DNA from: Escherichia phage vB_Eco_J-01
Sequence record: PQ438393.1
Length of the DNA: 64,000 nt
Direction: 5' to 3' (one strand)
Positions 9,765 to 32,143 of the stretch are shown here, in pieces (position 1 is the first letter of the stretch; each line of letters opens with the position of its first letter). The translations under genes and the position numbers were made by a program. Below the pieces are notes generated by a model. It saw only the letters and a program-made list of their open reading frames with translations. It was not told the origin of the DNA and did no database searches.

Positions 9765-10329
9765 AGAACCTAAAGTTATTTGGGGAGATGGAACACCTTG
9801 GAAAACTCAAGCAGCCTTTTATACATATTTAAGGGGTTGCTTAAGGAAAGCATGGGTGAGACACCCGAATAAGATAAAAAAGATCCAATCTGTACGATTT
9901 AAAGCCGATAGGTTGGATAAAGATGGCAATGTAGTTTTAGATAAGAAAACAGGCAAACCGAAACAGGTTTGGAATTGTAAATGTGAATTGTGTGGACATA
10001 CAGGAGGTATGAAAGACTTTCAAGTAGACCATATTAATGCAGCAGGTACATTAACCTGTTATGAAGATATCCCAAGTTTTGTTTTACGCCTATTGTATGT
10101 AACAGAAGACGACCTGCGTGTAGTTTGTAAGCAGTGTAACGCTATCCTGGCTTATGCTGACAAGCACGATATGACATTCAGGGAAGCAAAAGCGGAGAAA
10201 GAAGCGATAGCTTTATGCCAGTCTAAAAAGGATAAAAATTGGCTGACGAAGCGCGGAATTTCACCAGAAAGTACAATAACTAAGCGAAGAAAACAGATAG
10301 TAAAAATTCTTCTTGACGAAGAGAAATAA
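9754..10329 (+). CDS. HNH endonuclease-like zinc-binding protein
   Basis: CxxCGH...DHI...CxxCN arrangement; TTG start. Confidence 0.4.
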   Translation: MENKEPKVIWGDGTPWKTQAAFYTYLRGCLRKAWVRHPNKIKKIQSVRFKADRLDKDGNVVLDKKTGKPKQVWNCKCELCGHTGGMKDFQVDHINAAGTLTCYEDIPSFVLRLLYVTEDDLRVVCKQCNAILAYADKHDMTFREAKAEKEAIALCQSKKDKNWLTKRGISPESTITKRRKQIVKILLDEEK

Positions 10330-10360
10330 TAAAGTATTATCGCTCCCACAAACGGGAGCG
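10313..10360 (+). promoter_or_regulatory. promoter plus 5' stem-loop upstream of tk
   Basis: TTGACG, 16 nt spacer, TATTAT, then CGCTCCCACAAACGGGAGCG hairpin, then GAGGAG RBS. Confidence 0.45.
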
Positions 10361-10374
10361 TTAGAGGAGAAAAT

Positions 10375-10938
10375 ATGGCTAAACTTTATTTCCGATATAG
10401 TCCAATGAACAGTGGTAAAAGCACACATCTTTTACAAACAGCTTGGAACTATAAAGAAAGAAATATGAAAGTTCTTCTTTTAACTTCGGCTTTAGATACC
10501 AGATCTGGTTGTGCTATTGCTTCTAGGATAGGTATTAAAGAGGAAGCAAAACCAGTTAAAACAAAAGAAGATATGCTGGAAATTTATACACAGCTTAAAG
10601 AAAATCCAGTAGATGCAGTATTTGTGGATGAATCACAATTCCTAACTAAAGATATGGTTGACATTCTTGGAGATGTGGTAGATAATTACGATATTCCTGT
10701 ATTCTGCTATGGACTTAAAACAGATTTTGCTACAGAATTGTTTGAAGGTTCTGAACGGTTATTAGCCATAGCAGATTCAATTACGGAATTGAAAAGCATT
10801 TGTAAATGTGGAAGAAAGGCTATTTTTAATGCTAGACTTATCGACTCTAAAGAACAGATTGTTATTGGGGGAGAAGACATTTACGAAACAATGTGTAGAA
10901 AATGTTATAACAGGAGAAATAATGCGTCTAGTATGTGA
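10375..10938 (+). CDS. tk: thymidine kinase
   Basis: P-loop YSPMNSGKST, VFVDESQF, C-terminal CKCG...CRKCY zinc motif. Confidence 0.9.
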   Translation: MAKLYFRYSPMNSGKSTHLLQTAWNYKERNMKVLLLTSALDTRSGCAIASRIGIKEEAKPVKTKEDMLEIYTQLKENPVDAVFVDESQFLTKDMVDILGDVVDNYDIPVFCYGLKTDFATELFEGSERLLAIADSITELKSICKCGRKAIFNARLIDSKEQIVIGGEDIYETMCRKCYNRRNNASSM

Positions 10939-11512
10939 TTGGGATTTAGTAATAGCTCCTGCGGATATAGAATGGTTAAATTGGTTAAATGCGGTAAGTA
11001 GATCTAATATCAAATTTGATAAGGCACATAAGACTGTGCATTATGATATTACGAAATATTTTCCTGATTTTAAAAACCAATTTGGTGTAGATCCTTACTC
11101 TTTTTGGGATAACCAACATCTATATGATACTATGGGAGTAGTACCTAATAGTACAGATGTTGTTCATCGTATAATTGCAAATGGAGCTAATATATCTATA
11201 GCAAGCCACACTAAGGGTGGACACCTTAGTTCTAAATATAGACACGTAACACGGTCTTTAGATAAAGTGGACTTTAGTAGAACATCTGGTAATGGCTTTT
11301 TCGCAACAAAAGAAAAATACTTATTACCTTGCGACGTAACTATTGACGATAGGGCTGAAAATCTTGTCCTATTTCCAGATGAAACGTTGAAAATATATTT
11401 CAACACTATTTACGAAGATCCATACTTGGAAGAGTTAAAGAAACTTCCTAATGTAATTATCACTGGTTTAGATAATCAGTGGGAAGAAATTGAAAGTATT
11501 TTACTACCTTAA
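10922..11512 (+). CDS. HAD-superfamily phosphatase (putative deoxynucleotide 5'-monophosphatase)
   Basis: ORF track 10808..11512; ATG 10922 overlaps tk end; DWDLV (DxDxV) and later DD motif. Confidence 0.45.
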   Translation: MRLVCDWDLVIAPADIEWLNWLNAVSRSNIKFDKAHKTVHYDITKYFPDFKNQFGVDPYSFWDNQHLYDTMGVVPNSTDVVHRIIANGANISIASHTKGGHLSSKYRHVTRSLDKVDFSRTSGNGFFATKEKYLLPCDVTIDDRAENLVLFPDETLKIYFNTIYEDPYLEELKKLPNVIITGLDNQWEEIESILLP

Positions 11513-11521
11513 GGAGAAATA

Positions 11522-30384: not shown

Positions 30385-30386
30385 TA

Positions 30387-31376
30387 ATGAAAGTTTTAAG
30401 TCTTTTTGATGGTATGTCAGGAGGAATGCTTGCGCTAAAAAGTGCAGGTATTGAAGTAGATACATATTATGCTTCAGAATTAGACAAATTTGCCATAGCT
30501 GAAAGCCAAGCAAATTTTCCAGATATTATTCAGTTAGGTGATGTTACAAAATGGAGAGAATGGGATATCCCGTGGGGAGAAATTGATCTTTTGTTAGGTG
30601 GTAGTCCGTGTCAAGGCTTCTCTTCTTCTGGTAAGGGTTTGAACTTTCAAGATCCGCGATCTAAGCTATTCTTCGAATATGTTGAAATTCTTGAACATAT
30701 TAAAAAGTTTAATCCTAATGTTAAGTTCATGCTTGAAAACGTTAAGATGAAAGCGGAGTGGGAAAACGTGATCACAAGTTACTTAGGTGTTGATCCCGTA
30801 TTCATTAACTCCGCAGATTTCACTGCACAGAATAGACAACGTTTATACTGGTGCAATTGGGAAATAAAACCTTGGGATATTACCAATGAAGTGTTGCAAG
30901 ATATCATTGAAGATGATAGTATTGTAGACAGAGATAAGGCTTATTGCATAGATGCAAATTATGCCAAAGGTGGTAATATAGAACAGTATTTTGAAAAGAG
31001 TCGCAGACAACTGGTTTTTTATCCAGCAGCAATATATGGGCGTAGAATTAATGAAAATGGCAAACGTAGTACATCTAAAACTGATCGTTTGGTACATTGC
31101 TTGGAAGTTCAGGACAGTGAAAAAACTCGTTGCCTCACGACTGTGCCGAAAGACGTACTATTAGCTTACATTCCACCTGGAAGATATCTGGATGCCTTTG
31201 AAAAATTGAGTGAAGGCGTGCATTATAGAAAGTTAACTGTTAAAGAGTGTTGCCGCTTACAAGGTGTTCCAGATGATTACTTTAAAGTGAGTAGTAACAC
31301 ACAAGCATATAAGATGTTAGGTAATGGTTGGACTATACCTGTCATTGCACATATTCTTAAGTGTATGGAGGAATGA
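30387..31376 (+). CDS. DNA (cytosine-5)-methyltransferase
   Basis: Motif I LFDGMSGG, motif IV GGSPCQGFS, motif VI ENV. Confidence 0.85.
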   Translation: MKVLSLFDGMSGGMLALKSAGIEVDTYYASELDKFAIAESQANFPDIIQLGDVTKWREWDIPWGEIDLLLGGSPCQGFSSSGKGLNFQDPRSKLFFEYVEILEHIKKFNPNVKFMLENVKMKAEWENVITSYLGVDPVFINSADFTAQNRQRLYWCNWEIKPWDITNEVLQDIIEDDSIVDRDKAYCIDANYAKGGNIEQYFEKSRRQLVFYPAAIYGRRINENGKRSTSKTDRLVHCLEVQDSEKTRCLTTVPKDVLLAYIPPGRYLDAFEKLSEGVHYRKLTVKECCRLQGVPDDYFKVSSNTQAYKMLGNGWTIPVIAHILKCMEE

Positions 31377-31498
31377 TGGAAACATTGTGGAAAGGCTGGA
31401 AGACTGCTCTGATAGCTTTTATAATTCCATTAACTTTTCTTGGTTGGTGTTTTTGGGAATTTATCTTTTGGGTAATTTCCCATATACATTGGGGGTAA
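31373..31498 (+). CDS. small membrane protein, 41 aa (not in ORF track)
   Basis: ATG 31373 overlaps methyltransferase stop; hydrophobic Trp-rich peptide; stop 1 nt before next ATG. Confidence 0.4.
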   Translation: MMETLWKGWKTALIAFIIPLTFLGWCFWEFIFWVISHIHWG

Positions 31499-31499
31499 T

Positions 31500-32108
31500 A
31501 TGACTCAAAAAGTTGCATATCAAGTAGATCGTGAAGATGGTGAAGGTAGTGTTGTAGTTTTTGATACACATGGTCTTGCAGCAAGACGCAAAGGTGCTTG
31601 TCTACTGGACATTGGTGGTGAAGATGAATACTGCACTGTACGTAGAGTAAAAGAATTTGATCAATATGCTGAAAAAGGTTTTGTACCCGTGAAAGCACTA
31701 TTAGAAGCTGGATGGTGGATACCTAGTGCACATGATTATGATATTTTGGAAGATACAGATGAATTCAACAGCGAGGATTTTGTTTTTTCTCTAGATGAAA
31801 AATGCGTTTGGAAAAACTGGGATGAAATGGAACGCCATGCTTATTTTATAAACGAAGCATTAGATCGTAAAACTTGGTTTGAAAATACAGTTAAAGCAGC
31901 GTATCCTCAATTTACTTTTACACAGTTTTGGGGTGGCCCACATCATATTACTCATACAGCATATTTCGAGTTCCCAGGCTCACGTTATAAAGGTACTGTT
32001 TATTGGGATTGGGACGAGGACAAAGAACCTTCTGCTCAAGACTTCCGTTGCTATGTTTGTCAAGGTGATCAAGAAGCCCTTGACAAGTACCTTAAAAGTC
32101 TGGTATAA
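31500..32108 (+). CDS. hypothetical protein
   Basis: ORF track. Confidence 0.5.
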   Translation: MTQKVAYQVDREDGEGSVVVFDTHGLAARRKGACLLDIGGEDEYCTVRRVKEFDQYAEKGFVPVKALLEAGWWIPSAHDYDILEDTDEFNSEDFVFSLDEKCVWKNWDEMERHAYFINEALDRKTWFENTVKAAYPQFTFTQFWGGPHHITHTAYFEFPGSRYKGTVYWDWDEDKEPSAQDFRCYVCQGDQEALDKYLKSLV

Positions 32109-32143
32109 TCCGTAAAACTTAACCAAAGCCCCAATCAGGGGCT
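32080..32143 (+). promoter_or_regulatory. promoter plus stem-loop upstream of 32163 gene
   Basis: TTGACA, 18 nt spacer, TATAAT, then CTTAACCAA box and AGCCCCAATCAGGGGCT hairpin. Confidence 0.45.

Follow-up and report, generated by a model that had tools for sequence, protein, structure and literature searches.

Promoter-like sites, stem-loops and Shine-Dalgarno sequences at plus-strand gene boundaries of Escherichia phage vB_Eco_J-01: a common layout rather than a common mechanism

A 64,000-nucleotide (nt) stretch of DNA from Escherichia phage vB_Eco_J-01 (PQ438393.1), hereafter the window, carries on its plus (+) strand three sites at which a sigma70-like promoter, a GC stem-loop and a strong Shine-Dalgarno (SD) sequence are packed into a gap of 45-97 nt. 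These sites are labelled S1 (10313-10374), S2 (12511-12590) and S3 (32080-32162). A first-pass annotation had proposed sigma70-like hexamers, a GC hairpin and an SD at all three, and each of these elements is present where it was placed. What the sites have in common is a layout, not a mechanism. With a confidence only a little better than even, we read them as transcription-unit boundary cassettes that function like the promoter-early stem-loop (PeSL) elements of T4-type phages. The cassettes are fairly ordinary, belonging to a kind already known among phage regulatory elements, and current understanding is not overturned by them. The window shares 98-99% identity with E. coli myophages of Justusliebigvirus (phi92-like, Stephanstirmvirinae), such as Eryne and muut; with E. 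coli as the host, its promoters are properly judged against the sigma70 consensus. Folding energies of the S1, S2 and S3 hairpins lie between -12.4 and -14.4 kcal/mol, and their z-scores against dinucleotide shuffles are -4.1, -2.0 and -2.1, respectively.

S2 heads orf136 and the conserved nrdA/nrdB operon. Its promoter (12511-12539, + strand) consists of TTGACT (12511-12516), a 17 nt spacer and TAGTAT (12534-12539), a 9/12 match to the consensus; the hairpin, AGGAGAGC/tat/GCTCTCCT, occupies 12551-12569 at -12.4 kcal/mol, and AAGGAG (12580-12585) precedes the ATG at 12591 (SD and start, 12580-12593). Orthologous gaps were located by using the flanking proteins as anchors. The syntenic array was compared in the Phapecoctavirus phages phAPEC8, ESCO5, ZCKP1 and SF1-1, and further relatives were the Klebsiella phages KP2025 and phi1_175008 and the more distant 05F01 and KP13-16; phiWec181 and four IMG/VR contigs were used for the S2 region only, a protein search of IMG/VR with orf136 having given just four loci. 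In the ten orthologous sequences so obtained, which span several divergent Stephanstirmvirinae lineages, the -35 TTGAC of S2 is invariant, and the -10 takes the form TAnnAT (TAGTAT, TAAGAT, TAATAT or TATAAT) in nine, the assignment in KP13-16 being ambiguous. The spacer is variable. A fixed -35, a TAnnAT -10 and a variable spacer together make the footprint expected of a sigma70 promoter. No NrdR boxes were seen at the S2 promoter on inspection by eye.

The S2 stem exists in seven versions (AGGAGAGC, GGGAGAGC, GGGAGAG, TGGGAGGA, GGGGGA, GAGAGG and AGGGACT), every one of them fully paired. Exchanging arms between lineages weakens the fold from a mean of -12.2 kcal/mol with the own 3' arms to -6.5 kcal/mol with swapped ones. 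Since loop lengths differ, MAFFT alignments of S2 set the 3' arms out of register, and a covariance model was therefore built. Across eight sequences, 95.3% of the aligned pair cells are paired and four of the eight pairs are changed on both sides, a count that uses the covariance-model alignment and so leans towards the model structure. As controls, only 3-4 of 500 shuffles score as high, and slid partners pair at 56-70%. The model missed the KP13-16 orthologue and found that of 05F01 only at E = 0.44; these two were instead examined by eye and put through the arm-swap test. Such a pattern indicates that the S2 stem-loop is a genuine 5' untranslated region (UTR) hairpin and that its pairing is under selection, with structure conserved and sequence variable. 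The distance from the -10 to the stem is likewise held at 11-12 nt in nine of the ten sequences. All start-site geometry given here assumes that sigma70 transcription begins some 7 nt downstream of the -10. In the window the S2 stem begins 11 nt past the -10, which would leave some 4-5 unpaired nt at the predicted 5' end. There is no U-tract (2 T in the 10 nt past the GC core), and S2 is absent from the list returned by a terminator scan.

S3 presents a different picture. Its promoter (32080-32109, + strand) matches the consensus at 12 of 12 positions, with TTGACA (32080-32085), an 18 nt spacer and TGgTATAAT (-10 at 32104-32109), and the -10 overlaps the TAA stop of the gene at 31500-32108. 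TTGACA and TATA(A/G)T are retained in phAPEC8, ESCO5, ZCKP1, SF1-1, KP2025 and phi1_175008, and TTGACA is kept even though the Klebsiella phages encode Phe-Asp-Asn there in place of Leu-Asp-Lys. In all relatives that have it, the -10 overlaps a stop codon (TAA or TAG) plus the next T. A homolog of the gene upstream of S3 was not detected in 05F01 or KP13-16. The hairpin (32125-32145) is AAAGCCCC/aatca/GGGGCTTT followed by ATTTGTGT, and GGAGG (32154-32158) precedes the ATG at 32163 (SD and start, 32154-32165). The relatives keep the hairpin base, AAAGCC...GGCTTT, and a T-rich tail 14-15 nt past the -10, and differ in inner stem and loop. Like the hairpins at 9150, 22238, 29892 and 33525, that of S3 has the features of an intrinsic terminator, namely a GC stem, A-tract and U-tract flanks and a bidirectional shape, and it was picked up by the terminator scan. 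Unlike an ordinary terminator, it lies downstream and not upstream of a consensus promoter. It starts 15 nt past the -10, which puts it some 9 nt into the predicted transcript, and its tail has 7 T in 10 nt; it is more likely to be a terminator or attenuator of upstream transcription than a 5'-end protector.

S3 also marks a mosaic junction. The gene downstream of it is just 33-37% identical in the relatives. On its upstream side, three Phapecoctavirus phages (ESCO5, REC and 536P1) carry a copy of the gene at 31500-32108 that is 96-99% Justusliebigvirus-like, whereas the identity is about 77% in other Phapecoctavirus members. Homology of these copies stops at the S3 -35, and the cassette is in this respect an inter-genus recombination junction.

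At S1, the promoter-like site (10313-10340, + strand) reads TTGACG (10313-10318), 16 nt, TATTAT (10335-10340), a 10/12 match spanning the final codons of an HNH gene and the bases just past its stop. The hairpin, CGCTCCC/acaaac/GGGAGCG (10341-10360; -13.6 kcal/mol), is followed by AGAGGAG (10363-10369) and by the ATG at 10375 (SD and start, 10363-10377) of tk, a name taken from the annotation of relatives. Like S2, it lacks a U-tract (2 T in the 10 nt past the GC core) and is absent from the terminator scan list. Because the stem begins 1 nt past the -10, and thus abuts the hexamer, a normal start site would fall inside the hairpin; a transcript begun 7 nt past the -10 would lose the 5' arm and fold at just -2.6 kcal/mol. 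The first-pass annotation had itself named start sites downstream of the hairpins as the outcome that would tell against it, and the predicted geometry of S1 comes close to that. An alternative -10, AATAAT (10325-10330), from which the hairpin would lie about 10 nt downstream, was rejected because it has no -35. The S1 promoter is weakly conserved, with TTGCAT/16 nt/TAATAT in KP2025 and TTGCAG/17 nt/TAAGAT in phAPEC8, and the -35 is poor in all relatives compared. Of the three promoters this one alone is doubtful, with its 10/12 match and poorly conserved -35. In KP2025 and phi1_175008, AGCCCC/acagac/GGGGCT stands directly after TAATAT, in the same place as the S1 hairpin, and precedes the gene that in the window follows tk; in the phAPEC8 group and 05F01 no hairpin was found at this position. 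Only two versions of the S1 stem are thus at hand. tk itself, which sits directly past the S1 leader, was not found outside Justusliebigvirus among the relatives compared.

The three sites lie in a long co-directional array (1-33819, + strand) of nucleotide-metabolism, replication and recombination genes, as judged from the annotated muut record; it includes genes for DNA ligase, RdgC, an exonuclease, tk, thyA, nrdA/nrdB, dTDP-sugar enzymes, PhoH and Sir2. Small early open reading frames (ORFs), with a repeated cassette in front of them, occupy the minus (-) strand at about 34000-57000. The survey took in all intervals of 20 nt or more between neighbouring + strand genes, of which 13 truly non-coding gaps of 36-97 nt were kept. 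All 13 carry a GC hairpin just 5' of the ribosome-binding site (RBS), promoter or not, with 5' ends at 5570, 6807, 9150, 10341, 12551, 15544, 22238, 23035, 24216, 25654, 29892, 32125 and 33525. Ten of these reach -9.9 kcal/mol or lower; among random 50-mers of the window, 12% reach -10. Promoter-like sites occur at seven boundaries (6777, 10313, 12511, 24163, 25627, 29916 and 32080), and the six remaining gaps (5570, 9150, 15544, 22238, 23035 and 33525) have similar hairpins without one. Since 13 of 13 gaps have a hairpin regardless of promoter, hairpin-then-RBS is the default gap layout of the array. It is thus not confined to promoter sites, and the three sites listed in the first-pass annotation are joined by cassettes at 6777, 24163 and 25627 and by one of reversed order at 29892/29916.

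In the case of 6777-6850 (+ strand), TTGACT, 18 nt and TAATAT are followed by the hairpin GCCTACCTA/ctcagt/TAGGTGGGC (6807-6830), TTTT, AAGGAG and an ATG at 6848. Both its promoter and its -10-to-stem spacing of 0-1 nt are conserved in four lineages (window, phAPEC8, KP2025 and 05F01) whose stems differ, for instance GCCTACCTA/TAGGTGGGC in the window versus GCCTCAT/ATGAGGC in 05F01; in KP13-16 the counterpart is a stem-loop across the spacer and -10. RNA begun 7 nt past this -10 would lose the 5' arm and fold at just -4.9 kcal/mol. The cassette at 24163-24251 (+ strand) has TTGACA, 17 nt, TAAAGT (with TG), a terminator-like hairpin at 24216-24235, an SD and an ATG at 24249, and its promoter is not conserved outside the genus. 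At 25627-25683 (+ strand), TTGACT, 17 nt and CATACT are combined with a stem-loop (25654-25675) that overlaps the end of the -10; KP2025 keeps TTGACA, 17 nt and CATACT, and its stem-loop covers both spacer and -10. The 3' arm of the 25654-25675 stem-loop (ACAGGAGG) holds the SD of an invertase-like gene at 25681; with the 5' arm over the -10, read-through RNA would therefore mask this SD and promoter-initiated RNA would not. Such masking is not conserved in KP2025. The reverse-order site (29892-29944, + strand) begins with the terminator AAACCCGC/ttcg/GCGGGTTT and a T run, and TTGACA, 17 nt and TAAACT follow at 29916.

Taken together, the stem-loop stands upstream of the -35 at 29892, over the end of the -10 at 25654, against the -10 (0-1 nt) at S1 and 6807, and 11, 15 and 24 nt past the -10 at S2, S3 and 24216, respectively. 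The tails can be classed as well: 8 T per 10 nt past the GC core at the clear terminators 9150, 29892 and 33525, 7 at S3, 4-5 at seven intermediate hairpins and 2 at S1 and S2. Near-identical terminators, AAAGGGGCGAAAGCCCCTTT (repeat family D11), recur in the + array at 9150-9169, 22238-22257 and 33525-33542. Between the window and muut, four substitutions fall within + strand hairpins, all of them in loops and none in about 190 stem nt.

In the reading that we prefer, the stem-loop would chiefly be an RNA-level element that terminates or attenuates the transcripts coming in from upstream genes or provides them with a stable 3' end, and the sigma70 promoter would restart transcription for the genes downstream. 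The register between promoter and stem-loop varies by site and would lead to different outcomes. At S1, 6777 and 25627, the start would fall within the stem, such that promoter-initiated RNA would be free of the hairpin and only read-through RNA would be structured; for S1 this would hold only if its weak promoter is real, and the case depends mainly on site 6777. At S2, where the hairpin lies some 5 nt into the RNA, its sole obvious role would be as the 5'-terminal structure of the mRNA from the nrd operon, most plausibly one that slows 5'-end-dependent decay. At S3, a terminator about 9-30 nt into the transcript of the consensus promoter would shield the last three genes against transcription from upstream and would probably also attenuate the output of its own promoter.

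The comparison with PeSLs can be made point by point. In the T4-type phages RB49 and phi1, these elements comprise a promoter of sigma70 consensus, a GC stem-loop for which termination has been shown, and an SD (PMC2839356); PeSL cassettes are also known in PST and nt-1 and take part in the modular shuffling of genes (PMC2839356, PMC4122927). The order of stop codon, sigma70-consensus promoter, GC-rich stem-loop, SD and start codon is common to both, and in both the stem-loop may lie upstream of, across, against or downstream of the promoter (PMC2839356). A stable GC stem-loop followed by an SD and start codon is found at S1, S2 and S3, and a sigma70-consensus promoter at S3 (12/12) and, in conserved form, at S2, with S1 doubtful. 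Both kinds of cassette coincide with junctions of gene insertion or replacement, as where tk directly follows the S1 leader and where the ESCO5 gene copy ends at the S3 -35. PeSLs, however, are mutually similar repeats of about 100 bp found in ORFan-rich hyperplastic regions, with minicircles and recombination and with proven termination; by sequence, S3 is the only terminator-like one of the three + strand sites. Moreover, the whole stem-loop comes after the predicted start at S2, S3 and 24163, and a U-tract is missing from S1 and S2.

A set of cassettes on the - strand is the closer PeSL analogue. Between 48800 and 56900, eleven early promoters (TTGACA, 16-17 nt, a TAAAGT-like -10) are followed 9-13 nt later by a hairpin and then by an RBS. 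Their hairpins are GC stems of 8-10 bp without a U-tract, mostly GGCGGGAAA-tgg-TTTCCCGCC. A repeat search groups these cassettes as families D1, D2, D5 and D8, and terminators as D11, and places S1, S2 and S3 in no family, their stems and spacers being unrelated. The first-pass annotation was correct that the + strand stems are unlike those of the - strand cassette. The order of promoter, hairpin and RBS that it described is real, and at S2 and S3 this order is conserved across genera; the promoter of S1 is weak and poorly conserved.

Several points weigh against our reading. The + strand cassettes, unlike PeSLs, are not repeats of each other, and most of them sit within the conserved nucleotide-metabolism array and not among ORFans. 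The flanks of the three are mixed: the nrd operon behind S2 is conserved, tk next to S1 is confined to the genus, and the gene next to S3 is the divergent one mentioned above. The z-scores of the S2 and S3 folds are only about -2, and in KP13-16 the S2 hairpin lies just some 3 nt past the best -10. Without a U-tract, S1 and S2 are not canonical terminators, and the attenuator role is not obviously applicable to them. A consensus promoter placed right before a good terminator, as at S3, seems wasteful unless read-through is regulated. Finally, elements, conservation, stem covariation and geometry are what was observed, and every functional step (start sites, termination and stabilisation) is predicted from them by sequence.

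The first-pass annotation offered a single mechanism, a leader hairpin that protects the 5' end of the mRNA. Extended to all three sites, it would make each hairpin a 5'-terminal structure that shields promoter-initiated mRNA from 5'-end-dependent decay (RNase E and RppH). As an account of all three sites this is unlikely. 5'-terminal stem-loops do stabilise mRNAs of E. coli and of phages, as in the leaders of ompA and of T7 gene 10, and in the ompA type the hairpin begins within about 2-4 nt of the transcript 5' end. S2 resembles them, having a stable 8 bp hairpin close to the predicted 5' end, upstream of a free strong SD and with no terminator tail, and both its pairing and its geometry are conserved; the eleven - strand early cassettes show the same -10-to-stem distance. 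S1 and S3, given a start 7 nt past the -10, differ from ompA-type leaders in proximity (about 4 nt), S1 because its start would lie in the stem and S3 because its terminator-shaped hairpin is about 9 nt away. The loss of the 5' arm from normally started RNA at S1 and 6777, together with the similar hairpins in six gaps that have no promoter, also argues against protection as the general explanation. A hairpin lying between transcription start and RBS agrees with the geometry of S2 and S3 and not with that of S1, where it abuts the -10. Protection of the 5' end is thus plausible at S2 only; it is not so at S1, and would be an unlikely main role at S3.

A second explanation, and one we rate as slightly less probable still, is coincidence, with the hairpins being ordinary intercistronic terminators and the promoters chance matches in adjoining AT-rich DNA. 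Promoter matches of 9-10/12 are uninformative alone, occurring at 58 and 78 per 20 kb versus about 67 in shuffles, such that the total of matches at or above 9/12 is no higher than chance. The poor conservation of the S1 promoter, the genus-specific promoter at 24163 and the presence of a hairpin in every gap regardless of promoter all agree with coincidence. The 12/12 match with TG at S3 does not, as only about 0.1 such matches are expected in the whole window (an estimate from base composition) and its DNA is conserved across genera while the protein changes. Nor does the footprint at S2, or the -10-to-stem distance, which is conserved site by site. TTGAC is, furthermore, enriched at + strand gene boundaries, which make up 4% of the sequence and hold 10 of its 40 copies (p = 3e-6); GTCAA, the reverse complement, shows no such concentration (3/22).

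For S3 and perhaps 24163, a further and improbable reading is that the promoter-proximal terminator is a regulatory device. The promoter would then yield mostly a product of about 35 nt, save where an antiterminator, modification of RNA polymerase or changed conditions suppressed termination, and temporal control or a small RNA would result. At S3, a conserved terminator follows a consensus promoter within 15 nt in every lineage in which a homolog of the upstream gene was detected. In Pseudomonas phages, ONT-cappable-seq has found terminators within 5' UTRs that give rise to short RNAs, abundant and sharing their 5' end (PMC10914365), by analogy a precedent for S3. No antiterminator or nut-, put- or Q-binding-like element was identified, however, and a search of the whole window against Rfam 15 at the gathering threshold gave zero matches, a result for which known RNA families were also rejected. 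A simpler reading explains the layout as well, namely that the terminator of the upstream gene is forced past a promoter that overlaps the stop codon.

The hairpins without a U-tract (S1, S2 and the - strand set) could instead be binding sites for a phage or host protein or for RNA polymerase, controlling translation, processing or elongation and not merely passive stability, and this we hold to be the least probable of the explanations. It would account for the strict conservation of hairpin position and pairing at S2, for the conserved AACGTT immediately 5' of the S2 stem and for the purine-rich 5' arms of the S2 and - strand hairpins. The loop of S1 is similar in KP2025 (ACAGAC) despite unlike stems, so that distant relatives share ACARAY; this loop with its closing pairs (CCACAAACGG, 10348-10353) resembles the loop of the 5' stem-loop of the T7 gene 10 leader (CCACAACGG). 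No candidate binding protein was identified, and the S2 stem, with its seven versions, is free to vary, which argues against sequence-specific recognition of the helix. A related and quite doubtful idea is that S2 and the eleven - strand cassettes form one subfamily-wide class of leader hairpin, a dedicated cis signal for RNA polymerase or a phage factor. The traits that they share are stems of 8-9 bp, a purine-rich 5' arm, a loop of 3-4 nt, no U-tract and a position 9-13 nt past the -10. If true, the class could serve put/nut-like antitermination or the selective immunity of phage early mRNA to a phage-activated RNase, beyond passive stabilising.

Two other known systems were set aside. The hairpins recall the RNase III sites of T7 in being intercistronic stem-loops in a long co-directional phage array, but RNase III substrates have about 20 bp, or about two helical turns, and processing sites of this kind were rejected as the stems here have just 7-9 bp. 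For DNA hairpin promoters of the N4 type, nothing pointed to a virion RNA polymerase.

A search of the literature on Stephanstirmvirinae and phi92 returned nothing usable on start sites, 3' ends, RNA half-life or the transcriptome, and the rV5 paper lists predicted promoters and terminators and nothing beyond. Phages of the phi92 and phAPEC8 groups of Stephanstirmvirinae serve in therapy and in biocontrol, and for them the present survey supplies a map, open to testing, of 13 stem-loops and about seven + strand promoters with their conservation marked. Within it, S2, which precedes the ribonucleotide reductase genes, is a clean natural case in which to follow the effect of a 5' hairpin on mRNA fate during infection. 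S3 and 6777 are natural promoters that precede or overlap a terminator, and such compact insulator designs are of some interest to synthetic biology.

The survey leaves out 7061-7152 and 31377-31499, which look like gaps but are coding. The first, a 92-nt gap in the annotation, is an in-frame extension of the exonuclease gene (annotated GTG at 7153), conserved codon-wise in phAPEC8 and KP2025. It contains no ATG, GTG or TTG, and a non-canonical ATT start at 7069, after AGGAGGT (7059-7065), is likely; KP2025 has ATC there. The second, a 123-nt gap unannotated in muut, is filled by an ORF of 59 amino acids (31324-31503) with a hydrophobic C-terminus and an ATGA overlap with the next gene.

Beyond the + array, sites resembling the E. 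coli Fur box (GATAATGATAATCATTATC, at most 3 mismatches) gave 5 matches versus 0.04 expected from shuffles. They include 46347-46365, 47240-47258, 57778-57796 and 57831-57849, clustered in two ORF-poor stretches, and the clusters fall in repeat families D4 and D13 at 46151-46371 and 57768-57878. Adjoining the latter cluster, an ORF-free segment at 57889-58109 consists of three tandem repeats of about 63-77 nt (AAATTGAACTTTTCATTTT...AAAAACTTTAAATAA), which may be an origin or a regulatory region.

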